A stretch of DNA of 64,000 nucleotides, taken from the NCBI GenBank assembly GCA_050246115.1, contig JBFWWP010000024.1, forward strand, positions 13,381-77,380, written 5' to 3'. Position 1 is the stretch's first letter; each line of letters starts with the position of its first letter. The notes under the pieces were generated by a model that was given only the letters and a program-made list of their open reading frames with translations, did no database searches and was not told where the DNA came from. This DNA comes from Planctomycetota bacterium. GTDB taxonomy: Bacteria; Planctomycetota; UBA8108; UBA1146; JAJFFE01. This document shows positions 1,847-50,734 of this stretch, one piece after another. The translations under genes and the position numbers were made by a program.

Positions 1847-3358
1847 TCAGCCCAGGACGGTCCGGAGCTTGCCTTCGAGGTAGCTTCGGAACACACCCGG
1901 GTCCAACCGGGCGCCGGTGACTCGCTGACACAACTCATCCGCCGAGTAGCGCGCCCCGTGGACATGGATTCCCGCGCGCAACCACTCGCGCAGCGGTGTC
2001 AGCTCGCCCGCCGCGATCCCGTCCTCGAGCCCGGGCAACTCGCGCTGGGCGGCGGCATAGATCTGCGCGGCGAAGAGGTTGCCCAGGAAGTAGGTCGGGA
2101 AGTAGCCGAATGCCCCGAAGCTCCAGTGGATATCTTGCAGGACGCCCTCGCGATCGGTCGGCGGCACCAAGCCAAGGTCGGCGCGCATGCGCTCCTTCCA
2201 GATGCCGGGGAGATCGGCCACCGCGACCTCGCCCGCTACCAGTTGGCGCTCGAGTTCGAAGCGCAGCATGACGTGGAGGTTGTAGGTCACCTCGTCGGCT
2301 TCCACCCGAATCAACGACGGCTGCACCCGATTGACGGCCCGCAGAAGCGCACCGAGTCCCAGTCCCTGGAGATGCGGGAACTCGGCCTGTAGTTGCGGCA
2401 GGAAGAAGGTCCAGAACGGTCGCCCGCGCGCCACGATGTTCTCCCACATGCGCGACTGCGACTCGTGGATCCCGAGGGAGACCGCAGCGGCGAGTGGAGT
2501 CCCCTCCCAATTCCAGTCGAGCCCCTGTTCGTACAAACCGTGCCCGGCTTCGTGCACCAAGGTGAACAGCGACTCGATCGTGCTGTTGTCATAGCGAGCG
2601 GTCAGACGAACGTCACGAGGACTGATCCCCGAGCAGAACGGGTGCGTCGAAAGGTCGAGTCGGCCGCGTTCGAAGTCGAAGCCCATGCGCCGAATGACCT
2701 CGAGGCCGAACTTCCGCTGCCGCTCGACATCGAACGGACCGGCGAGGGCTGGGGTCCGCGCCGAGATGGGTGCATAGTGAGCCACCAACTCGACGAGCCA
2801 AGGCTTCACTTGGTCGACCAGTCCTTGGACGTGCACCGCGGTGAAGCCGGGTTCGTACTCGTCGAGCATGACATCGTAGGCCGACGGGGTGCCGCCGGTC
2901 GCCCACCCACTGCCGATGGCCTCGGCCTCGCGGCGCTTCAAGACGAGCAGCTTCTCCAAGTACGGCCGGAACGACTCGAAGTCGTCCTGGGCCCGCGCAG
3001 CGGCCCATTTCGACTGCGCTTCCGATGCGGTGCGCGCGATCTCTTCCGCCAACTCCGGGGGCACTTTGCAGGCCCGATCGTAGTCCCGCCGAACCTCGCG
3101 GCAGAGGGCCTTCGCGTCCAAGTCCTCGCCGGTTCGACAAACCGCCTCCGCGGCCGCGAGTTGGTCCCCCAACTCGGGCGCGGTCGCCATGCGGTGCACC
3201 ACCTCGGTCAAGTCGCCAATCGCCGCCGCGCGACTCGGAGTCCCGGCGGGCGGCATCATCGTCTCTTGATCCCAGCCGAGAAGACCCAGGGTGGAGCGCA
3301 AGCGCCCGATTCGGACGACGGACCGCGTCAACTGCAGCAGGGCCGGATGGTCGAACAT
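1847..3358 (-). CDS. M32 family carboxypeptidase (carboxypeptidase Taq-like)
   Basis: HEAGHGLYEQG (HExxH), HESQSRMWEN and IRVEADEVTYNLHVMLRFELE are typical of the M32 family. ATG start at 3356-3358. Confidence 0.9.
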   Translation of the reverse strand: MFDHPALLQLTRSVVRIGRLRSTLGLLGWDQETMMPPAGTPSRAAAIGDLTEVVHRMATAPELGDQLAAAEAVCRTGEDLDAKALCREVRRDYDRACKVPPELAEEIARTASEAQSKWAAARAQDDFESFRPYLEKLLVLKRREAEAIGSGWATGGTPSAYDVMLDEYEPGFTAVHVQGLVDQVKPWLVELVAHYAPISARTPALAGPFDVERQRKFGLEVIRRMGFDFERGRLDLSTHPFCSGISPRDVRLTARYDNSTIESLFTLVHEAGHGLYEQGLDWNWEGTPLAAAVSLGIHESQSRMWENIVARGRPFWTFFLPQLQAEFPHLQGLGLGALLRAVNRVQPSLIRVEADEVTYNLHVMLRFELERQLVAGEVAVADLPGIWKERMRADLGLVPPTDREGVLQDIHWSFGAFGYFPTYFLGNLFAAQIYAAAQRELPGLEDGIAAGELTPLREWLRAGIHVHGARYSADELCQRVTGARLDPGVFRSYLEGKLRTVLG

Positions 3359-3537
3359 GGCATTCCTCCCAAGGGACTCGAAATCACGAATCAGCAGTCG
3401 CGACGATAGCCGACGCCTGAAAGCAATTGCACGCCCAATTCTCGGCCGAACCGGCGGCGCGGCGCGCCACGATCGACCCGGCGAAGCCTTGGGCTGTCGC
3501 CGGTTTCGTGCGAGAGTATGGCCAGGGAGGCCAATCG

Positions 3538-5055
3538 ATGAAACTCGACTTCAACTTTGCGCTCCGAGCGCCGAGCGCGCCGCGGCCGCGCTCGAACAAC
3601 CCGTTCAAGGTGCTGATCCTCGCTGACCTCGGTGGACGCGGGAATCGCGAGCCGCCCGGAACCCTCGACGGGCGCCGCCCCCGAGCGTTGGACGTGGACA
3701 ACTTCGACCAGCGCCTGCGCGAGGTCGCACCACGAGTCGAGTTCGGCGCCCCCGGCGAGGCACCGGTCACTTTGACGTTCACCGACCTGGATGACTTCCA
3801 CCCCGACGCGATCTTCCGGCGCGTGGAGGGGTTCGAAGCCACGCGCGAAACTCGCCGGCGCTTGCACGATCCCAAGACCGCAGCGGCCGCAGCGGCAGCA
3901 CTCCGAGCGGACAGCACCGGCCTCATGGGCGGCCCCGCAGCGCCCCCGACCGCGCCCAGTTCACCGCCCGCGGAGCCGGAAGACGCGCTGTTCGATCGCC
4001 TCCTCGGGGCACCGCGAAGCACGGGAGCAACCGGCCCCGCGACTCCGCCGAGCCTCGACCGCTTCCTGCGCGCGATCATCGGGCCCTACCTCACACCGGG
4101 TCTCGAGTCCGATCACGCATCGCTCGTGGCTTCGGTCGACGCGGCCATCGGCGATCTCATGCGACGCATTCTCCACACCCCCGCGTTCCAGCAGGTCGAG
4201 TCCCTGTGGCGTGGACTCCGCGAGACCGTGGCCCGCGTGGAGACCGCCGAGGACTTGCAGCTCTTCGCCGTGGACATCACCCGCGAAGAGCTACGGCTCG
4301 ACCTCGAACTCGCGCGCGATGATCTGTCGCAGTCGGCGTTCCATCGCTGGGCGGTTCGCGAGGTGGAGTCTCCCGACGCCGAACCTTGGTCGCTCATCGT
4401 CGGGCACTACACGTTCGGTGCTCCCCCCGCTGACGCGAGTGCGAATCCGAACGAGGACGCCGTGTTCCTCGCGCGAATCGGCGCGATCGCAGCTCGCGCC
4501 CACGCCCCGTTCATCAGCGCCATCGATTCGCACTGGATCGGTTGCCACGCGATCGCCGAAGCGCCTGACCCGCGAGACTGGGCTCCGGTCGACCCGGGCT
4601 ACCAGGCGCTCCGCGCCGCGCCCATGGCTCCGTGGATCGGCCTCGCCCTACCGCGAGTGCTCCTCCGTTTGCCTTACGGAAAGGACGCCGACGCCATCGA
4701 CTCCTTCGCCTTCGAAGAACTCACGGGCGCCTCCCCTCATGAGGACTACCTCTGGGGCAACCCCGCCCTCGCCTGCGCCACGTTACTGGCGCAGTCGTTT
4801 CGCGAGCGCGGTGGTTCCGTCGACCCAGGCATGGCTCTCGACCTGGTAGACCTCCCCGCTCATACTCGCCGCCGCGACGGCGAAACTCACATGCAACCCT
4901 GCGCCGAAGTCGCCCTGCCGGAGAAGACCGTCGAAGCCCTATTGGCCCGAGGAGTGATCCCGGTCGTGAGCTTTGCACGTCAGAACCGAGCGCGCGTGGT
5001 CCGCTTTCAGAACATCGCCGACCCACCGACGCCGCTGCCGATTTCCGGCTCGTAG
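3538..5055 (+). CDS. single-chain TssB-like/TssC-like contractile sheath paralog (fusion, C-terminally short)
   Basis: ATG 3538 with GGAGG 9 nt upstream. The N-terminus matches the TssB of this window (FKVLILADLGG, LDVDNFDQRLREVAPRVEF, LTFTDLDDFHPDAI). An Ala/Pro linker follows, then a TssC-like part (FQQVESLWRGL, PRVLLRLPYGKDA, YLWGNPA). Confidence 0.75.
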   Translation: MKLDFNFALRAPSAPRPRSNNPFKVLILADLGGRGNREPPGTLDGRRPRALDVDNFDQRLREVAPRVEFGAPGEAPVTLTFTDLDDFHPDAIFRRVEGFEATRETRRRLHDPKTAAAAAAALRADSTGLMGGPAAPPTAPSSPPAEPEDALFDRLLGAPRSTGATGPATPPSLDRFLRAIIGPYLTPGLESDHASLVASVDAAIGDLMRRILHTPAFQQVESLWRGLRETVARVETAEDLQLFAVDITREELRLDLELARDDLSQSAFHRWAVREVESPDAEPWSLIVGHYTFGAPPADASANPNEDAVFLARIGAIAARAHAPFISAIDSHWIGCHAIAEAPDPRDWAPVDPGYQALRAAPMAPWIGLALPRVLLRLPYGKDADAIDSFAFEELTGASPHEDYLWGNPALACATLLAQSFRERGGSVDPGMALDLVDLPAHTRRRDGETHMQPCAEVALPEKTVEALLARGVIPVVSFARQNRARVVRFQNIADPPTPLPISGS

Positions 5056-5058: not shown

Positions 5059-6873
5059 TCAGCATCCCTGCGCGCACGAAAGTGCGGACGCACCGGCACC
5101 GCAGGTTGGGAACGGCGCCGGCGGAGGTGGACCGCCATTGAAGGAGAAGCCGAGCAGATACACCACGTCAGCGATGTCGAGGCCCGAGTCGGCGTTCGCG
5201 TCCCCGGCGCTCGCACACGGTATGGCGCTCCCTTGGAACAAACCCGCGAGCAAGCTCACCGGATCCGAGATATTGATGGCGCCATCGTCGTTGACATCGC
5301 CACGCAGGAACGCCGGGGCCGCGGAATAGACCACGGTCAAGATCTGGTCCGCGGGGACATCTGCGAGGACCGTTTGTACACCGTTCGGCCAGTCGATGAG
5401 CACCTGGTCGATGACGCTCGTCGCTCCGAGGCCGAAGTGCGCGGACAGCTCGTTCTTCGACAGAAAGTTGTCGCCCGAGTCGATGGGGCGCGCCTGCTGT
5501 TGGGAGCCAATGAACAATCGCACCGTCGCCCCAACTCCGTGCGGGGCAACGTCCGGACTCCCGCCGTTCGACAAGAACACCCGCAACCAGTGTGTGTTGG
5601 GACCGGCAAGGTCGTTCCGAAACAGCGTCATCGGCCCATTGAAGGCGCAGATGACGAGGTCCTGATCTCCGTCGTTGTCGTGATCGATGCGGACCAGACC
5701 TCGTCCCTCGCCGAAGTGCGCGAGCCCTACGGTCAACGCCTGCTCCGTGAAGGTGCCGTCCGTGTTGTTGATCCAGAGGTAAGACTGTTCGTTGAGAAAC
5801 TGCCCCAACCCCCCGTTGGTCTCCACGAGGTCTTGCCAACCGTCATGATCGAGATCGACCGCCGCCGCACCCCAGCCGTAGCCTCCCTCGAACACGCCGG
5901 CCGCCACGGAGCGCTCCTGGAACGTACCGTTTCCGAGGTTCCGGTAGAGCTTGTTGCCGGTCCAGCTGATCGACGGTTGATAGATCGAGGTGGTGTACCA
6001 GTCGACGAGTCCATCGTTGTCGAAATCCCCGACCGTCTGGCCCATCCCATTCTCCTCGAGCGTGGTGCCCGAGGCGGCCGAGGCGTTGGTGAAAGTGCCA
6101 TTGCCGTTGTTGTGGTAGTACAGACTCGTCCCGAAGTCCGACACCAAGAGTAGCTCCGGGTAATGATCTCCATCCATATCCAGAAGGCGCGGTGCAAACC
6201 CATGCATGGTGAACGGCACACCGACGAACAAGCCGGCGGCGGCCGTGACGTTCGTGAACGTCTCGTCGCCGTTGTTGCGAAACAGGATACTCCCGGTGTT
6301 TCCGCTGGCCGTTCCCGACACGAACAAGTCGAGGTCCCCGTCGAGGTCGTAGTCACCGAAGCATGAGCCGAAACCGTCCTGCGAAGCCGTGGTCGTGAAG
6401 TTGACACCCGCGCTCGCGGCGATGTTGGTGAAAGTGCCGTTGCCGTTGTTTCGGTAGAGACGATGCTGACCCACGCTCGGGTTGGGATACGCGCCAGCGC
6501 TGGTGCAGTAGATATCCAACCAACCATCGTTGTTGAAGTCGCCGACCGTCGGTCCCTTACCCATGTGGGACGCCGTCAATCCCCACACCGCAGCCTGATT
6601 GGTGAACGCGCCGCTGCCGTCGTTGATGAACAAGTGCTCCGCGTCGCCGCCGACTCCATCCGAGGGCACGTACAGATCCTGCCAGCCATCACCGTTGAAG
6701 TCTCCAGCGGCCGCCCCGCTGCTGTAGTTCGAGTGCGCAAAGATGCCGACGCTATGCGTGTTCTGGACTCCCGCCGCCAGCGTCTGATCGCTGAAGGCAA
6801 GGGTCTGCGCACATGCGGGCGCCACGGTCACGAGAACGACGAACAGCACCACGCCGATGCACGAGCGGTCCAT
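5059..6873 (-). CDS. secreted FG-GAP/VCBS repeat protein (ASPIC/UnbV, CRTAC1-like) with C-terminal dockerin-like repeats
   Basis: Signal peptide MDRSCIGVVLFVVLVTVAPACAQ from ATG 6871-6873. Repeats GDFNGDGWQDL, GDFNNDGWLDI, GDYDLDGDLDL, GDFDNDGLVDW, VDLDHDGWQDL, IDHDNDGDQDL. UnbV-like HWLRVFL...GATVRLF...FGLG. C-terminal DVNDDGAINISD and DANADSGLDIADVV. Confidence 0.82.
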   Translation of the reverse strand: MDRSCIGVVLFVVLVTVAPACAQTLAFSDQTLAAGVQNTHSVGIFAHSNYSSGAAAGDFNGDGWQDLYVPSDGVGGDAEHLFINDGSGAFTNQAAVWGLTASHMGKGPTVGDFNNDGWLDIYCTSAGAYPNPSVGQHRLYRNNGNGTFTNIAASAGVNFTTTASQDGFGSCFGDYDLDGDLDLFVSGTASGNTGSILFRNNGDETFTNVTAAAGLFVGVPFTMHGFAPRLLDMDGDHYPELLLVSDFGTSLYYHNNGNGTFTNASAASGTTLEENGMGQTVGDFDNDGLVDWYTTSIYQPSISWTGNKLYRNLGNGTFQERSVAAGVFEGGYGWGAAAVDLDHDGWQDLVETNGGLGQFLNEQSYLWINNTDGTFTEQALTVGLAHFGEGRGLVRIDHDNDGDQDLVICAFNGPMTLFRNDLAGPNTHWLRVFLSNGGSPDVAPHGVGATVRLFIGSQQQARPIDSGDNFLSKNELSAHFGLGATSVIDQVLIDWPNGVQTVLADVPADQILTVVYSAAPAFLRGDVNDDGAINISDPVSLLAGLFQGSAIPCASAGDANADSGLDIADVVYLLGFSFNGGPPPPAPFPTCGAGASALSCAQGC

Positions 6874-7051
6874 CCCGGTCTCCTTTCGCGAGGCGGTGAG
6901 TCGCGGGTCCGGACGCCGCGAACTCGGTCGCCGGGAATCACCCGCGAACAGTCTACCGAGTCCCCCCGGAGCAGTCGCCGAAAACCACGACCTGCGCGTG
7001 CCCTCCCGGTTCGAATCGCCCGCGAACGCGCTCGATCGGCAGCGAGTCCCC

Positions 7052-9730
7052 TCAGCGGCGCCGATCGTCCGGCTGCGTCTCGGCGTTCTGCAGTTCGGCC
7101 CGAAACGCAGCCGCGCGTTCGGACTCGCCCAAGGCCTCGTAGGCGGCGACGAGATCGTTGCGGGCCGCGCGTAGCCAACTGACCCCCGGACTCGCTTGGG
7201 CCTTGACGATCTCGTAGCCCGCGAGGGTCTCCTCGGCGGCCTCGGCATAACGTCCCAAACCGAGCAGGGACCGGCCGAGCTTGATGCGCGCAATCCCAGT
7301 ACTCAAGTGGCCCGGCGCTAGCGTACGGCCGAAGATGCCGACCGCGCGTCGAAACAGCTCTTCCGCCCGTGCGAAGTCTTGCTGGCTCGTGAGTACGCTC
7401 GCCAAGTTCGAAGTCGCCGTCGCGACCAGCGAGTGCTCCTCCCCGTAGACACTCTGGTAGATCTCCAAAGTCCGTTGGAAGTACGCCGCCGCGTCGTCCA
7501 ACCGGTCCTCCTGGAGTGCTGCGGATCCCAAGTCGTTGAGGGCAGACGCGACTCGGGGGTGGACGGGACCGTGCACTCGCTCTTGGATGCTCGAAGACCG
7601 TTCGAGCAGAGCCTGCCCTTCGTCGAACTTCCGTTGGTAGACGAGCACTCGGCCCAGCATCGTCATCGCGGAGGCGCTGCGAAAGTGATCCGCACCGTAG
7701 AACGATTCGAGCCGCGCCAAGGCCAGGCGATAGAAGTTCTCGGCCTCGAGGTAGCGCCCGCGATCGGCCTGTGACGCGCCAAGATTGATGAGAACATCAG
7801 CCACCCGCGGGTGGACATCACCGTAGATTCTCCGAGCACAGGTAAGAACCTCGTGGTTGAGCTCATCGGCGGCCTCGTAGTGGCCGGCGTAGTAGTGCGC
7901 GTCCGCGAGTTGTCCGAGCGCCGACGCATACTCGGGGGACGTTCGATCTTGGCGCTCGTACACCGCCACCACTTCGGAGTTCACGCGAATCGCATCGTCG
8001 TACTGCCCCCGCGCCTCGAGCACTCTTCCCAGGGCACCCAGGGCACCAACGGTCATCGGATGCTCGCGGCCCACCACCTGGGTGGCCCAATCGAGGGCTT
8101 CGCGGACGAGGCCTTCCGCTTCCTCCAGGCGCGCTTGGTCCAGTCGGAGTAGACCCAGAGCCACCCGCGTCGTCATGGTTTCGAGGTGTCGTGAACCAAG
8201 CAGCTCCTGTTGTCGTGCAAGTGCGAGATCCAGAAGTTGGTTCGCACGCTCGAACTGTCCGAGCTTCTGGTGGATGGTCCCCAGAGTACGATACAGTTCG
8301 GCCTGCACCACCGGCTCCTGGTCGAGAGAACGAGCCTCGCCAATCCCGCGCTCGAGCAACGCGGTGACCCGGAGTTCCTCGGCTGGCCCGGCTTCATCTC
8401 CGCCTTCGAACAAGCTCCAAAGGAAGTGCTGGATGCGCTGGGTCCGAGCCGACTCTGCCAGCGCTTCGTCGCGAGCCGCGGCCAAGCGTGCAGCGTAGAA
8501 GACGCTCGCATAGGCCGCGACCGCCAACGCCAGCACCGAGGCCAGGACCGCTTTGCGGTTGCGACGCACGAACTTGCCGAGGCGATAGCGCACGGAGTCG
8601 GGTCGGGCTTCGAGCGGCTCGCCGCGCAAGAAATGATCGATGTCACGGGTCAAGGCATCGACCGTTGGATAGCGGCGCTCGGGGTCCCAGTGCATGGCCG
8701 TCGCGCACAGTACGTCCAGGTCCGCCCACGACAACCGGCCCGGTACCACACCGTCACGACGACGCAAACCCACGGGCTGGGTCGCCCGGCGTGCGACCAC
8801 CGATGGTCGCTCCGCCTCCCGTGGACCCATCGCGGCCCGAGCTGCTGCCTCCTCGGGGACACCCGTGTCGAAGGGCACTCGCCCGGTGAGGAGTTCGTAG
8901 GTGATCACACCGAGTGAGTACACGTCGGTGCGGATGCCGACGGGCTCTCCGCGAAGCTGTTCGGGTGACGCGTAGGCCGGGGTCATCAGCCGCAGCCCCG
9001 TGCGGGTCTGATCGACCGTCGCGTCGACACCCTCGAGATGCTTGGCGATTCCAAAGTCGAGGAGCTTCACGGTGCCGTCCGCGGTGACCAAGATGTTCGA
9101 GGGCTTCAGATCCCGGTGGATCACGGCTTGCGCGTGGGCATACTGCACGGCCTCACCGACGCTGCGCACGAGTTCCAAGCGCCCTTCGAGCGAGGTTTCG
9201 TGCCGCCGACAGTACTCGGTCAGCGGCTGCCCTTCGACGTACTCCATGACGAACCAAGAGGTGCCATCGGGCGTCGACTCGGCATCGTGAAGCTGTGCAA
9301 TCGACGGATGATTCAGGCGCGCGAGGGTTCGCTGTTCGGCCGCGAAGCGTTCGCGCCGCGCAGGCGAGAGCCAGCCGTCGCGGAGGATCTTGATCGCCGC
9401 GCGACTCCCGAGGTCGGCTCGCTCCGCGAGGTAGACGACTCCCATTCCTCCTTCGCCGAGAACGCGCAGCAACCGGTATGGTCCTAGCACACTCGGTACG
9501 CCAGCAGGGAGCGTTCCCGTCCGCGCGAGCACGCTGTCGGCGAGGTGTGCCACGCCTTGGTCGAGAAGCGTACAGGGCCTGGCGTCGGCGGCGAGCATCT
9601 GACGTACACATACCAGGAGTTCTGGGTCTCGAGGCTCGTGCGCCGCGAGCCACGACTCTCGCTCCGCGAGCGGGAGCTCGGCCACTCGATGGAACAGGGC
9701 CTGTGCACGCTCCCAGCGAACCGGATCCAT
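7052..9730 (-). CDS. Ser/Thr protein kinase with one TM segment and C-terminal TPR repeats
   Basis: Kinase motifs GEGGMGVVYLA, AIKIL, HRDLKPSNILV, DFGIAK, ASPEQ. TM segment AVLASVLALAVAAYASVFYAA. Long TPR-like C-terminus. ATG 9728-9730 (MDPVRWERAQALF). Confidence 0.9.
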   Translation of the reverse strand: MDPVRWERAQALFHRVAELPLAERESWLAAHEPRDPELLVCVRQMLAADARPCTLLDQGVAHLADSVLARTGTLPAGVPSVLGPYRLLRVLGEGGMGVVYLAERADLGSRAAIKILRDGWLSPARRERFAAEQRTLARLNHPSIAQLHDAESTPDGTSWFVMEYVEGQPLTEYCRRHETSLEGRLELVRSVGEAVQYAHAQAVIHRDLKPSNILVTADGTVKLLDFGIAKHLEGVDATVDQTRTGLRLMTPAYASPEQLRGEPVGIRTDVYSLGVITYELLTGRVPFDTGVPEEAAARAAMGPREAERPSVVARRATQPVGLRRRDGVVPGRLSWADLDVLCATAMHWDPERRYPTVDALTRDIDHFLRGEPLEARPDSVRYRLGKFVRRNRKAVLASVLALAVAAYASVFYAARLAAARDEALAESARTQRIQHFLWSLFEGGDEAGPAEELRVTALLERGIGEARSLDQEPVVQAELYRTLGTIHQKLGQFERANQLLDLALARQQELLGSRHLETMTTRVALGLLRLDQARLEEAEGLVREALDWATQVVGREHPMTVGALGALGRVLEARGQYDDAIRVNSEVVAVYERQDRTSPEYASALGQLADAHYYAGHYEAADELNHEVLTCARRIYGDVHPRVADVLINLGASQADRGRYLEAENFYRLALARLESFYGADHFRSASAMTMLGRVLVYQRKFDEGQALLERSSSIQERVHGPVHPRVASALNDLGSAALQEDRLDDAAAYFQRTLEIYQSVYGEEHSLVATATSNLASVLTSQQDFARAEELFRRAVGIFGRTLAPGHLSTGIARIKLGRSLLGLGRYAEAAEETLAGYEIVKAQASPGVSWLRAARNDLVAAYEALGESERAAAFRAELQNAETQPDDRRR

Positions 9731-9740
9731 GCCTTCACTT

Positions 9741-10352
9741 TCAGATCGGTCGGCGCAGTTCGTTCGCCAACCAGGCGCGGGCCGCGCGCCAGTCGCGAAG
9801 GACGGTAGCTTCGGAGACCTGCAGGAGCTGCGCGATCTCCGCCACCTCGAGGCCACCGAAGAAGCGGCCCTCGATCATGGCGGCTTGGCGTGGGTTCATC
9901 TTTCGTAGAGCCTCGAGCGCCGCGTCCAGCGCGAGCACATCCTCTCCCCCGGAGTCCGGCGACGCGGTCATGCGGTCGGCGGACGCCGGAGCGAGCGCCT
10001 CGTCGAAGACCACCGGAACGATCCCGGACCCACGCCGCTCGGCGTTGCGGCGGCGGGCCGCCTCGACCAGCACTTGACGGATGGCGCGGGCCGCAATGCG
10101 CTTGAAGTGGAGTACCGAGACCACGGTGAGCGGCGGCGACGACGCCAACTTGATCCACGCCTCGTTGACCAACGCCGTTGGATTCAACGTCGCCCGGGCA
10201 TCGGTCGCCCGCACGGTGGACGCGAGCCGGCGCAGTTCCTCATAGATCATGCTGAAGAGCTGGTCGAGGTGGGCACGATCGCCCGTCCAGCCGGCGAGAT
10301 CGCCGGACTCGAGCGCTCCGTCCTCGAAGTTCATCCACGGTCCGGGTTCCAT
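9741..10352 (-). CDS. ECF-type RNA polymerase sigma factor (kinase-paired, ECF43-like)
   Basis: LDQLFSMIYEELRRLAS (region 2 start) and C-terminal HTH LEVAEIAQLLQVSEATVLRDWRAARAWL. Its stop lies 10 nt upstream of the kinase start. Start is ATG 10352 or 10334. Confidence 0.85.
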   Translation of the reverse strand: MEPGPWMNFEDGALESGDLAGWTGDRAHLDQLFSMIYEELRRLASTVRATDARATLNPTALVNEAWIKLASSPPLTVVSVLHFKRIAARAIRQVLVEAARRRNAERRGSGIVPVVFDEALAPASADRMTASPDSGGEDVLALDAALEALRKMNPRQAAMIEGRFFGGLEVAEIAQLLQVSEATVLRDWRAARAWLANELRRPI

Positions 10353-10546
10353 CTCGCCCGATCCGATCCCCTGCGAGAGTCGACACTCACTGGGGCGGCA
10401 CCGGATCCGGCCCCGCCCCAATCTATCCATCAAAACTCGGATCGCAATGACGGGTCGCGCCTGCGGATTGCGCAATGCATGGGTGAAACCGGCAACGGCC
10501 GACGAGCCCGCTCAGCCGGACCCGTCCCCCAACTCGAGGAGGTCCC

Positions 10547-10870
10547 ATGCAACCCATCGAACGAAGCCCGTTCCTGAGCCTCGACCAACAACGTGTCGTC
10601 GGATTCCTGAGATCGATCGGGACCCGCGACCCCGACGTGCTCCACGCCCAGAAAGCCAACCTGGACTCGCTCGCGAAGTTTCCTAAGTACGTGGGCGTCT
10701 ACCTCATGGTGTTGGGGGGACTGCTCACGGCCACGGTCCTCGGCGCCTTCCTCGGCATCCCGCTGCTGATCTTCGGATGGTGGGTTCGTCGGCGCGGCGT
10801 TCGCAACATCGCAACGGTGGAAGCCGGCTACGGCGAATTCATGGCGAACTCCGGAGCGGCGGCCGCCTGA
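10547..10870 (+). CDS. hypothetical small membrane protein
   Basis: GAGGAGG lies just upstream of the ATG. Hydrophobic stretch VGVYLMVLGGLLTATVLGAFLGIPLLIFGWWV (two TM helices). No recognisable family. Confidence 0.5.
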   Translation: MQPIERSPFLSLDQQRVVGFLRSIGTRDPDVLHAQKANLDSLAKFPKYVGVYLMVLGGLLTATVLGAFLGIPLLIFGWWVRRRGVRNIATVEAGYGEFMANSGAAAA

Positions 10871-11137
10871 GCGAGTCCGTCCCCGGCAGCGCGCCGAGGT
10901 CCGAACACACCGTCGAAGATCACCCCGACGTGCAATGCGACCCCGGTCCTGCTCGGCGGCGCGCCCGTGAACGCGGGAGCTCGAGGAGGCGGCGGGCTGG
11001 GCGAAGCCCGCGGCGGCCGCGCGTCAGCCGCGGTGGGACTGGGGTCACGAAGCACGCTCGGGTCCGATCCGAGCCCGGGCGTCGCCCGGCCCCGTTTGCG
11101 GCGCCGATCCCCGGCCACCCGAGCGATGGAGCCGGCG

Positions 11138-13249
11138 TCAACCCTTGGGTTCGAGTTGGGGGAGCTCGGCGTCGGCGCGCACGAGCGGGTCCTGCGACAA
11201 CGCCCACGCACCCGCCACGCCGCCGCGCCGGCGCCCGGCCTCCCAAGGGTTGCGCAGTTCTCGCAGGTAGCGTTCTTCGAACGTGCGCAGGGCGCGGTCG
11301 ATTCCCGACAGCGAGAACCGCAGCCGTACCCCGTCGCTGCGCGCCAGGTGCCGCCCGGGCTCGCGGCTCCCGTCGGTCTTGGGGGAAGCTCGCTCCGCGA
11401 GCTGGCGAAAGACGTTCGCCCCGCCGCGAAGGAAGTAGAGGAATGTGTGGTGCGTCGAGATGGCGCCCGCCCACGGATAGCTCGCGAGTCGATATCGGTC
11501 GGCCAACCGATCGATGTGGTCCTCGAGTTCGCGCAGTTCTTCCGGCCTCAGCGCCGCGTCGCGGGTGCGGAAGCGCGCGTACAGACGAAAATCGTCGGCC
11601 TCGGAGAACATGACTTCGGCGACGCCGAAGCGGTCCGGCTCTTGCGCGACCAGCGAGCCGGGCTGCAGACCGAACTCGCCGACGATGAAGAGGCTCACGT
11701 CGTCGCGCTGTTCCTCGATCCAATGCACGGTGTCCAACGCCTCCGCGAGCGACTCCGTGGGGTGCCCCGTGAACGTCATCCACTCCGTCGCCACGCCGGC
11801 GCGTTGGAACCGTCGGCTCACGTCCGTGAGCACCGATCGATCCGCTCCCTTGTCCATGAGTTCCAAGATCCGGTTCGATCCGCTCTCCATCCCAAAAGCC
11901 GCGGACCGTAGTCCCGACTTGAACAACAGCTCACAACGCTGCGGCGTGAAGTAGTCGTCCAGCTTGAAGTCCGAAGACCAGTGGATCTTGAGCTTGCGGT
12001 CGACGATCGCCTGCGCGAATCGCACGGCATACGACGGGGAGAGCACGTCGCAGGAGATATAGAAGTTCCGCACCCCGTGCCGGCGGGCGAGGCGGGCGAG
12101 GTGGCTCGCCGCGACGTCCGGAGGCACCTCGCGATAACGCGCGGTGCCACGCTCGGTCAACCCGTAGTAGCAAAAGGAACAGCGTCCCCAGTAGCAGCCG
12201 CGGGTGGGTGCGTACAGCAGAGTGCGGCTCGGTGCCAAGTAGGCATCGAGGTCCAGGTCGGAGTAGTCGGGTAGCGGCGAGGTGCGAACGTCGAAAGCGC
12301 GCGTGGGCCCTTGCGCGAGCGTGCCCGTCGCCGCGTCTCGGTACAGCAAGTTGGGGACCTCCGCGAGGACCTGGGACCGGACGGCGGGGTCCGCACCGGT
12401 CCACTGGGGCAGCCGCTCGAAGAGCTCCGTCAGCGTCTCCTCGCCTTCGTACAAGCCCACGCCGTCGACGTAGTCGAAGAGCTGGGAACGACGCGCTTCG
12501 TCCATGTGCACGACCGCCTGGTGCAGGCACGGGCCACCCATCGCCAAGAATGCCTGGGGGGCGGCGGTGCGGAGGAAGCGGGCCAAGTGAAACGCCTCGG
12601 GGATCTGACTGGGGAACACCACGGACAGACCAACGAAGTCCACTCGGCTCAGGTCGACGGCGCCGTCCACGTCCTCGAGGTCATCGAACGTTGGCCTGAA
12701 GCGTTGCGCGTAGAACTCGCGCAACGGACTCCGGCCCGACTCACAGTAGGTCCTGAGCGTCGCGAATCCCCAGGGGAGGAAGCGGTGCGCGGCTTCGTTG
12801 AAACCGAATCGGTACGGAAAGTGAACCCCACCCAACAGGCGAAAGGCGATGTCGACTTGGCGCCGGGCAGCCTGGTATCGGTCCCATTGGTAGAAGTCGT
12901 CGGCATCGGCCAACGCGGCGACCGGTCCTGGCGCTCCGAGCAAACGTTCGCATTGCTCCAACGCCTCGGCCAGCTCGCGATATTGGAGCTGCTCCGAGAA
13001 CGTCAATCGCGCGGCCGCGTTGAGTCGCGCCAGTTGCTCGCGGGCCCGGTTCGTCAGGTCTTCGAGTGCAGCGGGCGCGAGCAGGTGGCGCACGGCTTCC
13101 AGGTTCAGGTCCATGACCGTGGTATGCCAGCCGCGCTCGGCGAGATATGCCTTGAGGGTCGGGAGGCTCAGGTACGGCTGAGTCGGGTCGGCGAACGCAG
13201 GGTGGATCAGCAACCGCTCCCGGACCACACTGCGCGCGGAGTCGAGCAC
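11138..13249 (-). CDS. B12-binding-domain radical SAM protein
   Basis: N-terminal B12-binding-like domain (LLIHPAF...YLSLPTLKAYL) and Cys cluster RGCYWGRCSFCYYG. Start placed at GTG 13247-13249 (GAGG 7 nt upstream) because a strong terminator hairpin lies inside the longer track ORF (to 13420). Start uncertain. Confidence 0.82.
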   Translation of the reverse strand: MLDSARSVVRERLLIHPAFADPTQPYLSLPTLKAYLAERGWHTTVMDLNLEAVRHLLAPAALEDLTNRAREQLARLNAAARLTFSEQLQYRELAEALEQCERLLGAPGPVAALADADDFYQWDRYQAARRQVDIAFRLLGGVHFPYRFGFNEAAHRFLPWGFATLRTYCESGRSPLREFYAQRFRPTFDDLEDVDGAVDLSRVDFVGLSVVFPSQIPEAFHLARFLRTAAPQAFLAMGGPCLHQAVVHMDEARRSQLFDYVDGVGLYEGEETLTELFERLPQWTGADPAVRSQVLAEVPNLLYRDAATGTLAQGPTRAFDVRTSPLPDYSDLDLDAYLAPSRTLLYAPTRGCYWGRCSFCYYGLTERGTARYREVPPDVAASHLARLARRHGVRNFYISCDVLSPSYAVRFAQAIVDRKLKIHWSSDFKLDDYFTPQRCELLFKSGLRSAAFGMESGSNRILELMDKGADRSVLTDVSRRFQRAGVATEWMTFTGHPTESLAEALDTVHWIEEQRDDVSLFIVGEFGLQPGSLVAQEPDRFGVAEVMFSEADDFRLYARFRTRDAALRPEELRELEDHIDRLADRYRLASYPWAGAISTHHTFLYFLRGGANVFRQLAERASPKTDGSREPGRHLARSDGVRLRFSLSGIDRALRTFEERYLRELRNPWEAGRRRGGVAGAWALSQDPLVRADAELPQLEPKG

Positions 13250-13297
13250 CGGACAACCTCGTCGTTGAGCAAGGCGGCGTGATCGGACCTGAGGACG

Positions 13298-13342
13298 CCA
13301 AGAACAAGAATACCGGGAGGCCCTTGGGCTTGGGCCTCCCGG
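13298..13342 (-). terminator. intrinsic terminator/attenuator between the small ORF and the radical SAM gene
   Basis: Perfect 11-bp stem CCGGGAGGCCC/GGGCCTCCCGG (13313-13323 and 13332-13342) with an 8-nt loop, followed on the minus strand by UAUUCUUGUUCUUGG. Confidence 0.55.
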
Positions 13343-13427
13343 CAGTGTTCTTAGCGCAGTAGGGAGTGGAGGTGAAGAGCTCTCGCGGCCAGGGTGGGCG
13401 GGCTCACCCTGCTCGCTCAAATCCCGC

Positions 13428-13550
13428 TTAGCGCTTCGGCCCCGGCTTCTGCGGGGCTGCGCCCGGCTTCGACGGGGTCGTCGGGGCGGGCGCCGGTTTG
13501 CCGGCCGGTTTGTTCGGTTGCGACTGCGAGCGGGGTTGGTTCTGGTTCAT
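13428..13550 (-). CDS. 40-aa Pro/Lys-rich small ORF (MNQNQPRSQSQPNKPAGKPAPAPTTPSKPGAAPQKPGPKR)
   Basis: Hand-translated; it is below the track length cutoff. ATG 13548-13550 with GAAGGAG 8 nt upstream. The third codon position is mostly G/C, as in real genes here. TAA stop at 13428-13430. Composition is also what GC-rich noise can give. Confidence 0.35.
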   Translation of the reverse strand: MNQNQPRSQSQPNKPAGKPAPAPTTPSKPGAAPQKPGPKR

Positions 13551-13593
13551 CGCGAGGACTCCTTCAGGATCTCACGTTGGACTCTCTTGGGCG

Positions 13594-13609
13594 GCTGTTT
13601 CCAAACAGC
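13594..13609. promoter_or_regulatory. dyad GCTGTTT-CC-AAACAGC in the divergent control region
   Basis: 7+7 bp inverted repeat 44-59 nt upstream of the small-ORF ATG, at the edge of an unusually AT-rich intergenic stretch (about 13650-13860). Confidence 0.2.
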
Positions 13610-13912
13610 GTCGACGCACGAAGAGCAAGTCCGCGCACAGAGCCGGAAGAATCTCCGCAAGCCACAATAATTTCACATTTTAGAGAAACTCGAGACAAGC
13701 CCATCGAGATGTCTGAAGGGGTATTTTCGGATGCTCTGTTCCGAATTGTTCGGCATTCAAAATCTGATTTCTTCGTGAACGACTCCCCAGAAACTCCCCG
13801 GCGCTCCCTGGAGACTCGCTGGACACAAACGCTAGTGAATGGAACCATAAGGGCTTGAGACGGTCCGCTGAAGTCGATCGGCACTCGCCGTCAAACCGGA
13901 AAGGGGATTCCG

Positions 13913-15346
<1,434 letters not shown>

Positions 15347-15349
<3 letters not shown>

Positions 15350-15540
15350 GGAGTCGCTCAAGAATAACTTCGACATCTTGCCGTCGATTTGGGTCAGATT
15401 CGGCCGATCCGGAAAGCTCGAAACCGGAGGCGTAGCCTTAGTTCCGGTGAGGATTTCGAGGTTTTCGGAGCGGTCGAAGATGGCCCGAAGCGACGAGCAA
15501 GAGGGTGAAGTTATTCTTGGGCGACTCCTAAGGAGTCGCC
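15347..15540. mobile_element. MITE-like element copy A (179 bp core 15350-15528, flanking TAA, plus a 9-nt extra end)
   Basis: Terminal inverted repeats GGAGTCGC(T/C)CAAGAATAACTTC ... GAAGTTATTCTTGGGCGACTCC. TAA on both sides (15347-15349 and 15529-15531). 6 substitutions in 179 bp versus the copy at 59040-59218. No ORF. The whole element is an imperfect long palindrome. Confidence 0.78.
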
Positions 15541-15579
15541 GTTGCCGTCGGTCGCGGTGCACCCGCCATAGGGTCAGTG

Positions 15580-18336
15580 TCAGTCGAACGAGTACCCGAA
15601 CTCGCTGTTCGCCGCGGTCACGTGCACGCGCTTCAGCTCCCGTCCGTCGAGCATTCGGGTCAGAATCTCCTCGCTGATCGTCGGCAGAACCGTGTTCGTG
15701 AGGATGGCGTCGATCATGCGCCCGCCGCTCTCGAGCTCCGTGCACCGCTTGACGATGGTCGCCACGACATCGTCATCGTACGTGAACGGAACCTTGTGAT
15801 TCGCCTCGATGCGCTTCTTGATCCGGCCGAGTTGCAGGCGCGTAATCGAGCCAACCACTTCGTCGGTCAGCGGGTAGTACGGAATCACCACCAGACGCCC
15901 GAGCAAGGCCGCTGGGAAAGTCTTGAGCAAGGGCTCGCGCAACGCCTTGGCAATACCCTCGGAACTCGGCGTCAACTCGGGGTCCTTGCACATCGACAGG
16001 ATCAGGTCGCTGCCGACGTTCGACGTCAGCAGGATCAAGGTGTTCTTGAAGTCGATGAAGCGACCCTCACCATCCTCCATCCACCCCTTGTCGAAGACCT
16101 GGAAGAAGATCTCGTGCACGTCGGGGTGAGCTTTCTCGACCTCGTCGAGCAATACCACCGAGTAGGGCTTGCGGCGAACCGCCTCGGTGAGGATCCCGCC
16201 TTCGCCATAACCCACGTAACCCGGAGGCGCGCCCTTGAGGGTCGAGACCGTATGCGCCTCCTGGAACTCGCTCATGTTGATGGTCACGACGTTGTGTTCA
16301 CCGCCGTACAAGATCTCCGACAGGGCGAGGGCGGTCTCGGTCTTGCCGACGCCCGACGGACCCGCAAGCAGGAACACGCCGATGGGCTTCTGCGGGTTGT
16401 CGAGGCTCGCACGCGAGGTCTGGACGCGACGCGCGATCTGCTCGAGGGCATGCCGCTGCCCGACAACCCGCTGATTCAAGAGCTCGGGTAGCCGGAGCAC
16501 GGTCTCGATCTCGTTCTTGACCATGCGCCCGACCGGAATGCCGGTCCAATCTGCGACCACCGACGCGACCGCTTGGCCATCGACCGACGGCAAGATCAAG
16601 GGACGCTCCCCTTGCAGTACCGCCAGCTCCGCTTGGAGAGTCGTCAACGTCGCGAGCTTCGCCGCTCGCTCGTCGTCCGTGAGCGCCTGCGGGGCTGCCG
16701 AGGTCACCGTATCCACGGCGGTGACATTGGCCGCCGCGTCGGCCTTCTTCTCGATCTCGCTGGCGGTGCCCTCGACCTTGCCCACGTGCCCCCGCAACTC
16801 GCCCCGGATCGCGAGCACCTGGTCTACCAGGCCCTTCTCGCGCTGCCAGCGATCGTCCAACTCCGCCAGACGCCCCTGCTCGGCCGCGAGCTTCTCGCGG
16901 GCCGCATGTTCCCGACTGGCCGTGGGAATCCCTACCGCGGTCTCGCGGCCAATGATCTCGAGTTCGGTCTCGAGCGCGGAAATCCGCTTGCGACAGTCAT
17001 CCACCTCGGCCGGCACCGAGTGCTGGCTGATCGCGACGCGCGCCGCGGTGGTGTCGAGCAAGCTCACGGACTTGTCGGGCAACTGCCGCGCCGGGATGTA
17101 GCGATGGGACAGTCGCACGGACGCCTCGAGCGCTTCGTCGAGAATCTGTACGCGGTGGTGCTTCTCGAGAGTCGAGGCAACCCCACGCATCATCAGAATC
17201 CCCTTCTCCTCGCTCGGCTCGTCCACCTGCACGACTTGGAAGCGACGCGTCAACGCCGGGTCCTTCTCAATGTGCTTCTTGTATTCAGCCCAGGTCGTGG
17301 CAGCGATGGTTCGCAAGGTGCCGCGCGCCAGAGCCGGCTTCAGGAGGTTCGCCGCATCGCCCGTGCCGGCGGCTCCACCAGCACCGATCAAGGTGTGTGC
17401 CTCATCGATGAACAAGATGATCGGCTTCTCGGACGACTGCACTTCCTCGATCACCTGCCGCAGCCGATTCTCGAACTCACCCTTCATGCTCGCGCCCGCT
17501 TGGAGCAGCCCGATGTCGAGCGACCGGAGCGTGACGTCCTTGATCGACGGGGGCACGTCTCCACGAGCGATCCGCAGGGCAAACCCCTCGACCACGGCCG
17601 TCTTCCCGACTCCAGCCTCACCCGTGAGGATCGGGTTGTTCTGCCGACGCCGCATGAGGATGTCGACGATCTGGCGGATCTCCTCGTCACGACCGACGAT
17701 GGGGTCGATCTCGCCCTGGCGCGCTCGCTCCGTGAGGTCGACCGAGTAGGTTCGGAGGGCCTCCTGCTTCCCCATCTGCGCGGGGGCCATCGCGCCGCTG
17801 GCCTCGCCCGGAACTGCGCCGCCACCCACCTGGGTGCCATCCTGAGCGTGCAACCCCGCCTCGATCGAGTCGCCGACGATCTTGTCGAAGTGTGAGGTCA
17901 GGTCGTCGACCGAGACCTTGTCGAACTCCGTCGAGATTCCCAGGAGCGCACTGCGAAGACCGCGGGTCTTCAACAACCCCACCAAGAGGTGTCCGCTCCG
18001 GACCTGCGAGTCACCGAACATCAGCGTGCCGTAGACCCAACCGCGCTCGACGGCTTCTTCCAAGTGGGCCGACAGATCCGAGATCGAGGTCGATCCCCGG
18101 GGCAGCCGATCGAGGGCGTCCGTGAAGTCCTTGGCTACGACCGAAGGATTGAGTTTGAAGTGGCGAATCACCCGCTGGAGATCGGAGTCCTGGAGCTGCA
18201 GGATCTGGTGCAACCAGTGCACGAGTTCGACGTAGGGGTTGCCCCGCATCTTGCAGAACACCGTCGCGCTCTCGATCGACTTGTAACCGACGCGGTTGAG
18301 CTTGCCAAAGAGCTTGGCCCGGCTGATCTCCGTCAT
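15580..18336 (-). CDS. tssH: T6SS AAA+ ATPase ClpV (TssH)
   Basis: ClpV-type N-domain (MTEISRAKLFGKLN...VELVHWLHQILQ) and two Walker A sites, GEAGVGKT and GPSGVGKT. 918 aa. Confidence 0.95.
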   Translation of the reverse strand: MTEISRAKLFGKLNRVGYKSIESATVFCKMRGNPYVELVHWLHQILQLQDSDLQRVIRHFKLNPSVVAKDFTDALDRLPRGSTSISDLSAHLEEAVERGWVYGTLMFGDSQVRSGHLLVGLLKTRGLRSALLGISTEFDKVSVDDLTSHFDKIVGDSIEAGLHAQDGTQVGGGAVPGEASGAMAPAQMGKQEALRTYSVDLTERARQGEIDPIVGRDEEIRQIVDILMRRRQNNPILTGEAGVGKTAVVEGFALRIARGDVPPSIKDVTLRSLDIGLLQAGASMKGEFENRLRQVIEEVQSSEKPIILFIDEAHTLIGAGGAAGTGDAANLLKPALARGTLRTIAATTWAEYKKHIEKDPALTRRFQVVQVDEPSEEKGILMMRGVASTLEKHHRVQILDEALEASVRLSHRYIPARQLPDKSVSLLDTTAARVAISQHSVPAEVDDCRKRISALETELEIIGRETAVGIPTASREHAAREKLAAEQGRLAELDDRWQREKGLVDQVLAIRGELRGHVGKVEGTASEIEKKADAAANVTAVDTVTSAAPQALTDDERAAKLATLTTLQAELAVLQGERPLILPSVDGQAVASVVADWTGIPVGRMVKNEIETVLRLPELLNQRVVGQRHALEQIARRVQTSRASLDNPQKPIGVFLLAGPSGVGKTETALALSEILYGGEHNVVTINMSEFQEAHTVSTLKGAPPGYVGYGEGGILTEAVRRKPYSVVLLDEVEKAHPDVHEIFFQVFDKGWMEDGEGRFIDFKNTLILLTSNVGSDLILSMCKDPELTPSSEGIAKALREPLLKTFPAALLGRLVVIPYYPLTDEVVGSITRLQLGRIKKRIEANHKVPFTYDDDVVATIVKRCTELESGGRMIDAILTNTVLPTISEEILTRMLDGRELKRVHVTAANSEFGYSFD

Positions 18337-18412
18337 GTGGATCCGCTCTTTCTATGCCTTGTCACGCAACTTCCGATACTCAGCACCGCCCGCTCGGCGC
18401 GGCGTTCGCAAC

Positions 18413-19411
18413 TCAGGCGAGCGGTAGGACGAGGTCGCCCGCGTCCGCTTCCTTTGGCCGGCTCACCAGCCACGAGGTCCGACCCAGCTGCTGAGTGCTC
18501 CCGAGCGCGAGCGGTGTGACCCCTTCACGCGCGAGGATCAGCCGCACGTCGTAGCCCAACTCGAATCCGATGTAGTTCCGCACCGCAGCGCGAAGTCGAG
18601 CGATACTGCGGCCTCCCGGCAACAGCCGAACATAGTCCGCCAGGCCCATGGGCCCGAGCACGATACGGAATTTCTGCGTACACTCCCAGACACGTCCGCC
18701 CAAGACCACGGAGGTCCCCAAGACCGCGGTGTTCGAACCAGCCCCGAGGCGCGTCACCGAGTCGGCCGGCAGCTCGAGCCAATGCCCCACGAACTGCTCG
18801 ACCCGAGCGGGAACGCGAAAGTAGTCCTCGAGCACGATGGCGAGGCCCTCCGCCGACCGTGTCGGGTGGGCGTAGAGACCGGCGTGGTACAGCTTCGCCT
18901 GATGCGGAAACTCGTCGCGCTCGCGCAGCGACTCGGGTCCACGCCCGCACACCGAACCCACGTAGAGCTGGAATCGATCGCTGCGCGGGCGATCCAGGTG
19001 AACCGTCGGCTGGGCATCGGCCCAGGCCCGGTAGAACAGGCTAATGAGACGGTGGTGAAAGATGTCGAGGAAGCGCGCGAAGGTGCGATCGGAGTGATTC
19101 TGAATGCGATCGATCGCATGCTCGGTGAGGTGGAGCGGCAGCGGGCCATTCGGACCGAACAACCCCGGGAACAACACCTTGAGCCAGGGCGTCTCGCCAC
19201 GGTCTTTCCCGAAGCGCTCGAGCGTGGTCGGCGCGAACCCGAGAGACGGAGTCTGCCCCAACCGTACGGGGTCGTCCCCCGCCCGGCGCGAAGTTCCCAG
19301 GCGCGGGTGGTCCGCGAACACGCACTCGAGCCGGCGCAAAGCCTGATCCAAGTGGAATCGATGCGGCTCGCGAGCCAGCGCCTGCATCAGTGCCAGTTCC
19401 GCGTCAGGCAA
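18413..19411 (-). CDS. tssG: T6SS baseplate subunit TssG
   Basis: PHRFHLDQALRRLE, DDPVRLGQTPSLGFAPTTL, and its position after tssF. Start is TTG 19411 or ATG 19387. Confidence 0.9.
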   Translation of the reverse strand: MPDAELALMQALAREPHRFHLDQALRRLECVFADHPRLGTSRRAGDDPVRLGQTPSLGFAPTTLERFGKDRGETPWLKVLFPGLFGPNGPLPLHLTEHAIDRIQNHSDRTFARFLDIFHHRLISLFYRAWADAQPTVHLDRPRSDRFQLYVGSVCGRGPESLRERDEFPHQAKLYHAGLYAHPTRSAEGLAIVLEDYFRVPARVEQFVGHWLELPADSVTRLGAGSNTAVLGTSVVLGGRVWECTQKFRIVLGPMGLADYVRLLPGGRSIARLRAAVRNYIGFELGYDVRLILAREGVTPLALGSTQQLGRTSWLVSRPKEADAGDLVLPLA

Positions 19412-25383: not shown

Positions 25384-25392
25384 CGATTCCTC

Positions 25393-27201: not shown

Positions 27202-27202
27202 A

Positions 27203-50710: not shown

Positions 50711-50734
50711 CCCTCCTCGCCGCGGGCGCGCGGG

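Follow-up and report, generated by a model that had tools for sequence, protein, structure and literature searches.

A short and widespread fused TssB–TssC-like protein without the C-terminal sheath domain, related to roseobacter TssCL and found at type VI secretion loci

We analyzed a 64,000-nucleotide stretch of a Planctomycetota bacterium contig (JBFWWP010000024.1; this whole stretch is called the window below) and focused on a gene whose 505-residue product joins, in a single chain, a part resembling TssB (VipA) and a part resembling TssC (VipB), the sheath proteins of type VI secretion systems (T6SSs). The product is a short, core-only form of the module known from the TssCL proteins of roseobacters, and this short form is far more widespread. 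As to its role, we give roughly even odds (a probability of about 0.5) to the protein being a T6SS accessory, that is, a non-polymerizing single-chain mimic of one TssB–TssC protomer that docks on the sheath or baseplate, presents a ClpV-type handle and regulates the sheath instead of building it. The gene had been singled out by a sequence-only reading of the window as an orphan fused sheath paralogue, and what was observed there holds up, well outside what chance would give.

Several searches recovered the two parts. Pfam matched VipA (PF05591) to residues 22–123 (E 5e-15, 56 bits against a cut-off of 24) and VipB (PF05943) to residues 196–485 (E 2e-51) of the fused protein. The window also encodes a canonical TssB and a canonical TssC, which we used as comparison paralogues: residues 22–111 aligned with residues 36–130 of this TssB at 40% identity (BLASTP, E 2e-17), and residues 195–496 with residues 70–373 of this TssC at 28% identity (E 5e-31). 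Using hhalign, columns 23–124 of the family profile were matched to TssB residues 34–136, and columns 198–504 to residues 63–374 of the 498-residue TssC (probability 100, E 2e-45). The protein stayed under the cut-offs of the NCBIfam equivalogs for TssB (TIGR03358, 52.6 against 97.25) and TssC (TIGR03355, 166.6 bits against 271.5, where the window TssC scored 734). Pfam found no match to VipB_2 (PF18945) in the fused protein and likewise none in any of six further proteins, from the family or related to it, whereas the window TssC contains VipB followed by VipB_2 at residues 381–492. As the family profile match ends at TssC residue 374 of 498, about 124 C-terminal TssC residues are without a counterpart, and tblastn detected no remnant of VipB_2 in any frame downstream of the fused gene. 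The sequence-only reading had described a fused chain with an Ala/Pro-rich linker between its halves and a shortfall of about 125 residues relative to TssC, and on all three points it was correct; the BLASTP alignments to TssB and TssC also bore out the matches it had drawn by eye, and the profile and structure comparisons that it proposed (Pfam, hhalign, AlphaFold2 and Foldseek) found similarity to the sheath proteins.

The N terminus resembles TssB also ahead of the Pfam match. The alternating pattern KLDFNFAL of the window protein has its parallels in the family consensus RMEFEFRF and in RVQIEYDV of TssB, a Phe is kept at three alternate positions of the arm in 65–79 of 120 family members, and profile-to-PDB alignments of the family begin at TssB residues 10–18. 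Residues 1–21 are thus a putative equivalent of the donor strand beta1 of TssB.

The AlphaFold2 model, built with 38 relatives, reached a mean predicted local distance difference test score (pLDDT) of 84 and a predicted template modeling score of 0.84 and was confident outside residues 1–20 and about 125–190; within the linker, pLDDT was 41–68. The best Foldseek match in the PDB was a VipB/TssC chain (5myu_A, E 8e-18, target-normalized TM-score 0.60), with further matches to 5n8n_B, 3j9g, 5urx and 9n4v, and TssB1 (5n8n_A) matched the N-terminal part of the fused protein. In the Pseudomonas aeruginosa sheath, the inner domain 1 is a "handshake" sheet of TssC beta11–12 and the donor strands TssB beta1 and TssC beta13, the middle domain 2 is a sheet shared by TssB beta2–3 and TssC beta1–4 and beta8, and the outer domain 3 consists of helices from the TssB C terminus and the TssC N terminus (PMC5807055). 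Mapped onto these domains, the modeled protein has the sheath fold and keeps domains 2 and 3, its TssB-like part being predicted to supply domain 2 with strands and domain 3 with a helix that corresponds to the TssB contribution there. Judged from the alignments, the fused protein is without the acceptor sheet of domain 1 and without the C-terminal donor strand; the absent VipB_2 is annotated as gpW/gp25-like in Pfam. According to a study on HsiB1C1, formation and polymerization of the tubules require the C terminus of HsiC1 (PMC3597794). Because the C-terminal interlocking domain is absent and HsiC1 needs its C terminus for tubules, the fused protein should not extend a sheath normally. This had been argued from the sequence alone, and we infer the failure to extend the lattice on good grounds.

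The gene lies in an open frame at 3427..5055 of the forward strand. We set its start to the ATG at 3538, since a Shine–Dalgarno-like sequence precedes this codon by 7 nt and the N-termini of 38 relatives line up there. A scan of positions 3200–5400 found no sigma-70-like promoter, and the single terminator-like site detected in it was at the level expected by chance. A protein identical to that of the window is present on an independent public contig (P0001).

A protein search gave 2,351 matches, of which the best 120 were analyzed for architecture and conservation. These were 458–541 residues long and 39–62% identical to the window protein; 118 of them carried PF05591 and PF05943, and the records of the remaining 2 listed PF05943 only. 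Alignments of 38 and of 120 members ran end to end, with the C-terminal pattern RFQSxAxPxxPLAGPW conserved up to the stop. The subclade of the window protein (with P0002 and P0003) ends in PLPISGS, PLPIRGA or PLPFGRG in place of the near-invariant PLAGPW. When each GTDB species was represented by a single genome and scanned, 538 out of 600 candidate stretches were confirmed, a lower bound, so that at least 538 species-level genomes carry the architecture of about 500 residues; the carriers belong to Beta-, Gamma- and "Delta"-proteobacteria, Acidobacteriota, Planctomycetota, Desulfobacterota, Rokubacteria, Nitrospirota, Eisenbacteria and others. Cultured bacteria with a member of the family, counting the long form in Leisingera, include Massilia sp. 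Root351, Methylobacter sp. sgz302048 and Eleftheria terrae. The short C terminus, at first taken for a truncation, is thereby a trait of the family, and the end-to-end conservation, the conserved stop and the lack of a VipB_2 remnant led us to reject a truncation, a frameshift or an assembly artefact. The family is common, as had been anticipated as a possibility, but it is not an already characterized one, the only members named in the literature searched being the TssCL proteins of roseobacters; the genes are labeled "contractile sheath large subunit" or ImpC in the databases. In neighbor-joining trees of the shared TssC-like region, which are crude and without support values, all fused proteins, including divergent forms from roseobacters and Eleftheria, fell into one clade separate from ImpD and from the canonical TssC of both classes, to which they are 25–38% identical over the shared region. 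The single clade points to one old origin of the fused family and not to repeated local fusions.

To place the gene among those of the T6SS, we used the T6SS proteins of the window and a VgrG as tblastn queries against 80 related loci. T6SS genes were found within the available flanks at 54 of the loci, a fraction that was 35/45 where either flank extended for 8 kb or more, and at 39 of the 80 a T6SS gene lay at most 1.2 kb away. The gene was divergent from vgrG at 17 of the 80 loci, convergent with clpV at 10 and, in Acidobacteriota, directly upstream of tssB-tssC-hcp-tagJ-tssA-tssE at 8; in the same-strand order clpV, fused gene, vgrG, clpV was found upstream at 11 loci and vgrG downstream at 8. 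Precomputed gene calls of Sedimenticola and of a JGI contig showed the same arrangement, and canonical tssB and tssC co-existed with the fused gene in all clusters seen. In the relatives, the fused gene is a regular T6SS-locus gene, and this does not support the earlier suggestion that it might belong to another system; it is an orphan only in the present genome, where the 3' end of clpV (position 15580) is 10.5 kb away. The flanking genes for an M32 peptidase and an FG-GAP protein are those identified before. A relative with a 50% identical protein (L086) has the gene order M32 peptidase, HEAT protein, fused gene, 86-residue open reading frame (ORF), clpV, tssG and tssF. Because L086 shares the M32 flank and has the fused gene near clpV, the gap in the window is probably a local insertion into an ancestral junction between the fused gene and clpV. 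The GC profile is flat (62–68%) across positions 1–40000, and composition gives no foreign mark for the 10.5-kb stretch.

The T6SS cluster of the window is the one that the fused gene most likely serves. Its TssC has the N-terminal motif EFASLL, its TssB carries SSQKFVARNRAPRVQ in the N terminus, and its ClpV (N domain encoded at 17857..18336) has R6, F10, I85, D87 and L88. These features characterize HsiC1, HsiB1 and ClpV1 of P. aeruginosa (PMC4239648) and make the cluster H1-class. Co-occurrence with H1-like loci, which the sequence-only reading proposed to survey, is not exclusive: a tie to H1-class or TagJ systems alone was rejected, as Acidobacteriota and Desulfobacterota also carry the fused gene in clusters of the LLDxI class.

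In the sequence-only reading, the first 60 or so residues of TssC, and with them the ClpV handle, were missing. The BLASTP match does stop at TssC residue 70, yet the family profile aligns linker positions 143–199 to TssC residues 6–60 of the sheaths 9n4v_A, 5urw_1B and 5ojq_A. Where TssC has its N-terminal helix, the family carries the strongly conserved motif E-D-D-A-A-[TLM]-[LF]-E-R-L-L-G, represented in the window by EPEDALFDRLLG, which includes ALFDRLLG; among the 120 members, E146 is conserved in 97, R154 in 101, L155 in 101, L156 in 117 and G157 in 109. In Vibrio cholerae, VipB's N-terminal helix binds the N domain of ClpV through 19-LLDEIM-24 (PMC4239648). The type of the motif matched the class of the neighboring system: all 15 members beside clusters with a ClpV1-class ClpV (R6/D87) or a "FASLL" TssC had a motif of the type [LFI]x[RQ]L[LI][GK], and all 17 members beside "LLDxI" clusters had a motif of the type GSLLDEMIEQT, the cognate TssC beginning SLLDQIVEQG. 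The member from Massilia sp. Root351 (locus L059, NZ_LMDJ01000005.1, fused gene at 10001..11470) has GDFASLLGG, which is the H1-class TssC motif (EFASLL/DFASLL) and ties the motif of the fused family directly to the TssC handle. In their cores, the fused proteins did not resemble the cognate class of TssC more than the other one (33% vs. 35% identity). The motif follows the class while the cores, forming one clade, do not, and this is most simply read as co-evolution of the motif with a partner that it shares with the TssC N terminus. The alignments thus suggest that a ClpV-type handle, as a putative binding site, has been retained at the homologous position within the linker.

Searching the literature for T6SS proteins of a fused, paralogous or sheath-like kind gave nothing; the sole relative found, through a search on Leisingera, was TssCL, described in roseobacters as a protein of 1,684 residues in which VipA occurs twice and VipB once (Suria et al. 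2022, Front Microbiol; PMC9515649). The authors considered it a TssB–TssC fusion confined to Alphaproteobacteria and left its function open (PMC9515649). Its C-terminal module has the make-up of the window protein, a divergent VipA, a linker and VipB without VipB_2, and it falls in one clade with the window family in the neighbor-joining tree; tblastn hits on Leisingera, Phaeobacter and Qingshengfaniella plasmids covered 97–99% of the window protein at 27–30% identity (E down to 3e-34). TssCL differs in its length, 1,063 to about 1,680 residues vs. 505, in having two VipA domains, one of them a full and near-identical copy of TssB, where the window protein has one, and in a long acidic repeat region and an acidic tail ending MDAELAALLxxL. 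It is encoded beside vgrG in H1-like (group-3) clusters. In the window, 10.5 kb separate the fused gene from an H1-class cluster and no vgrG is present in the 64 kb, while the 50% identical relative and most of the others have the gene inside a cluster. In roseobacters, the fused module is covalently joined to a genuine TssB, and this Rosetta-stone-type evidence argues for a function of the module at the sheath.

Some further forms of this clade are worth recording. On the Leisingera caerulea plasmid NZ_CP081065.1 (locus L005, 11905..16797, forward strand), an uninterrupted frame encodes a TssCL of 1,630 residues consisting of a full TssB copy, an acidic region of about 900 residues, the fused module and an acidic tail; the gene table of the plasmid shows only the last 656 residues as a gene. 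Its acidic region contains A, E and D at about 18% each and at least nine strict LD[DSA]L[LM]G repeats that resemble the linker motif of the short family. A TssCL form is also present on a Qingshengfaniella alkalisoli plasmid (locus L090, 10498..13689), and the Eleftheria terrae plasmid NZ_CP106952.1 (locus L091, 11992..13770) encodes a form of 592 residues with a roseobacter-type tail, …MDAELAALLASLD. In the Eleftheria and roseobacter clade, LDDLL motifs are followed at the extreme C terminus by D(M/L)DAEL(A/Q)ALL..L and the stop, the main family having PLAGPW there, and the pattern suggests that this peptide could be a second short docking motif.

Other known proteins are more distant. The canonical TssB/TssC pair (VipA/VipB, HsiB1/HsiC1) shares with the fused protein the homologous VipA and VipB domains, the domain 2/3 fold, the TssB-like N-terminal arm and the TssC-type N-terminal motif, but it consists of two chains instead of one, and in its TssC the gp25-like domain 1 (VipB_2) is present together with the donor strand at the C terminus. 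Agrobacterium and Rhizobium encode TssC40/ImpD, a second TssC-like protein, alongside TssBC in a T6SS cluster, and in A. tumefaciens TssC40 is non-redundant with TssC41 and required for Hcp secretion (Lin et al. 2013, PMC3702570). We rejected it as a member of the same family: ImpD of R. leguminosarum (462 residues) has VipB and VipB_2 and lacks VipA and the N-terminal handle region, the opposite truncation, and it groups with canonical TssC in the neighbor-joining tree. TagJ, TagB and TagA are non-core T6SS accessories for sheath assembly or ClpV recruitment (PMC7896307, PMC4239648), but their folds are unrelated (ImpE/TPR, a 30-kDa protein and ImpA_N, respectively) and none is derived from a sheath subunit; TagJ is itself encoded in the window cluster, and TagB was rejected as an identity for the fused protein, being a 30-kDa protein without stated sheath-subunit domains (PMC7896307). 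We also set aside a 646-residue "T6SS-associated protein" of Ralstonia solanacearum SL3022 (locus L004, 14938..16878, CP023017.1), which fuses full TssB, TssC and VipB_2 at the normal tssBC position and is either genuinely fused at full length or the product of a join made in assembly or annotation.

In the proposed role as a sheath-docking accessory, the mimic would attach to sheath subunits through its donor arm and its domain 2/3 surfaces, most likely at the end or on the surface of the sheath. As it would donate one strand and accept none, it could bind at the sheath end, the surface or TssE without propagating the lattice, for which it would be unfit. In the extended sheath, ClpV is believed to have no access to the canonical handle (PMC5807055); a handle carried in a flexible linker would be exposed constitutively. 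The mimic, and whatever it caps, could then be addressed by the partner of the TssC N terminus, in systems of the LLDEII class the N domain of ClpV, and at low stoichiometry it might tune the start or stop, length, stability or turnover of the sheath. Several observations weigh against this proposal. The N-terminal arm has low confidence in the model (pLDDT about 60) and is unstructured in the monomer, and the terminal GPW, otherwise conserved (the terminal W in 108 of 120 family members), is lost in the subclade of the window protein. About 10 of the 45 loci with full flanks have no T6SS gene within 10 kb, and the 15/15 and 17/17 counts for the co-variation of the motif are phylogenetically non-independent. 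For the H1-class in particular, the crystal structure shows a blocked groove in the ClpV1 N domain, and ClpV1 binding in two-hybrid assays did not depend on the HsiC1 N terminus (PMC4239648).

A bolder version of this proposal, which we regard as tentative and rather doubtful, makes the protein an ancient and overlooked near-core component of group-3-like T6SSs, namely a ClpV-addressable end piece of the sheath that makes a one-sided handshake with the terminal ring or, as a split pseudo-protomer, with TssE. A somewhat less likely explanation moves it to the baseplate as a "ring-0" partner of TssE, where the arm would insert into the TssE sheet, the mimic would supply domains 2 and 3, and a ring of such pseudo-protomers would prime the first ring of the sheath. 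TssE is a stand-alone gp25-like domain and as such the very piece (VipB_2) that the mimic lacks, the gene is frequently beside vgrG and sometimes beside tssK, and the first ring of extracellular contractile injection systems uses specialized sheath paralogues, such as Afp4/Pvc4; yet direct adjacency to tssE was seen in 0 of the 80 loci and, to our knowledge, canonical T6SSs prime their sheaths without such a protein. On a par with it we place a soluble decoy or adaptor for ClpV or the H1-class partner that never joins the sheath and titrates or pre-positions the unfoldase. The motif in a disordered linker, matched in class to the neighboring system, would suit this function, as would the position immediately downstream of clpV at 11 of the 80 loci and the extra acidic LDDLL-type repeats and tails of the roseobacter and Eleftheria forms, but a conserved full domain 2/3 fold and an N-terminal arm are superfluous for a mere decoy peptide, and the full TssB to which the module is joined in TssCL speaks for a physical association with the sheath.

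The remaining explanations are still less probable. That the protein is an adaptor or cargo loaded with, or chaperoning, the adjacent VgrG spike seems quite unlikely to us: the gene is divergent from or directly upstream of vgrG at about 25 of the 80 loci, but adjacency to clpV or tssB is equally frequent, and Pfam and NCBIfam searches found no toxin, PAAR or known adaptor domain in the protein. The clpV–vgrG junction is a single position in these clusters, so the adjacency to vgrG is non-specific. An alternative polymerizing sheath subunit, with domain 1 supplied in trans or unneeded, would explain the kept domain 2/3 fold and the co-existence with tssB and tssC, but this we hold to be very improbable, as the protein has neither an acceptor sheet nor a donor strand at its C terminus, HsiC1 needs its C terminus for tubules (PMC3597794) and canonical tssBC is always present alongside. 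The location away from the T6SS cluster and the degenerate terminal motif could even suggest a functionless decaying duplicate or an assembly artefact; we see hardly any chance of this, since the end-to-end conservation across phyla, at 37–62% identity, effectively refutes it and the start with its Shine–Dalgarno sequence is intact, no frameshifted VipB_2 remnant exists and the same protein was recovered from an independent contig.

The features of the gene and its surroundings are collected in Table 1.

Table 1. Parts of the fused gene, its flanks and the T6SS cluster, in window coordinates.
Feature	Position	Strand	Basis
Whole gene: single-chain TssB'-linker-TssC' without C-terminal domain; short, widespread form of the TssCL module	3538..5055	+	
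Shine–Dalgarno-like AGGGAGG, 7 nt before ATG 3538	3524..3530	+	Sequence
Residues 1–21: N-terminal arm, alternating hydrophobic pattern KLDFNFAL; putative TssB beta1 donor-strand equivalent	3538..3600	+	
Residues 22–123: TssB/VipA-like part	3601..3906	+	PF05591, BLASTP, hhalign
Residues 124–194: Ala/Pro-rich linker, diverged TssC N-terminal region	3907..4119	+	AlphaFold2 pLDDT, profile alignment
Residues 146–157: EPEDALFDRLLG, conserved motif where TssC has its N-terminal (ClpV-handle) helix	3973..4008	+	
Residues 195–496: TssC/VipB-like part, corresponding to TssC residues 63–374	4120..5025	+	PF05943, BLASTP, hhalign, Foldseek
Residues 497–505 and stop: C-terminal end PTPLPISGS	5026..5055	+	Family consensus PxxPLAGPW
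M32 peptidase, flank of the fused gene	1847..3358	-	
FG-GAP/ASPIC protein, other flank of the fused gene	5059..7293	-	
Non-T6SS stretch from the fused gene to clpV, about 10.5 kb: FG-GAP/ASPIC, Ser/Thr kinase-TPR, ECF sigma, B12-radical SAM, 637-residue protein	5059..15745	-	
H1-class T6SS cluster: clpV-tssG-tssF-tssE-tagJ-hcp-tssC-tssB-tssA-tagF-tssM-tssL-tssK-164-residue ORF-fha	15580..37464	-	Pfam
Canonical tssC, comparison paralogue	23887..25383	-	
Canonical tssB, comparison paralogue	25393..25911	-	
TPR, tetratricopeptide repeat; ECF, extracytoplasmic function; SAM, S-adenosylmethionine.

Several other genes of the window, all on the reverse strand, deserve a note. The T6SS cluster is otherwise complete, but no vgrG or PAAR homologue was found in the 64 kb, which places the spike genes elsewhere in the genome. 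Directly downstream of clpV, a 637-residue ORF (13832..15745) without a Pfam or NCBIfam match could encode a cluster-associated effector or a spike-related protein. A 164-residue ORF (35542..36036) between tssK and fha is likewise without a Pfam or NCBIfam match; it occupies what we take to be the position of tssJ (lip) in the H1 cluster of P. aeruginosa. Within the 10.5-kb stretch, a B12-binding radical SAM protein of 760 residues (11138..13420) had its best match below threshold, to a C-methyltransferase of the maturation of ribosomally synthesized and post-translationally modified peptides (TIGR03975, 109 bits against a cut-off of 282). The same stretch encodes, at 7052..10475, a 934-residue Ser/Thr kinase with TPRs adjoining a PF07638-type ECF sigma factor, and the two may be a regulatory pair near a T6SS in which Fha and TagF are present as well. 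Farther away, a flagellar filament cluster (45007..57293) includes an unusually long FliD (1,074 residues), flagellin-like genes of 483, 531 and 632 residues and FlgK.

The labels "sheath large subunit" and ImpC inflate the counts of tssC and hide the family. Keeping the handle and one donor arm and lacking the lattice-forming domain, its members are candidates for a missing end-binding or recycling factor, and they bear on two unsettled questions, the termination and stabilization of the sheath in short-TssA (H1-like) systems (PMC7896307) and the recognition of the sheath by ClpV1-class unfoldases (PMC4239648). If the end-piece version were true, the start and stop of the sheath would be set by the mimic, since no further strands could be accepted; the class-matched, exposed handle would be the entry point of the unfoldase, and roseobacter TssCL would be the same device covalently tethered to a sheath subunit.

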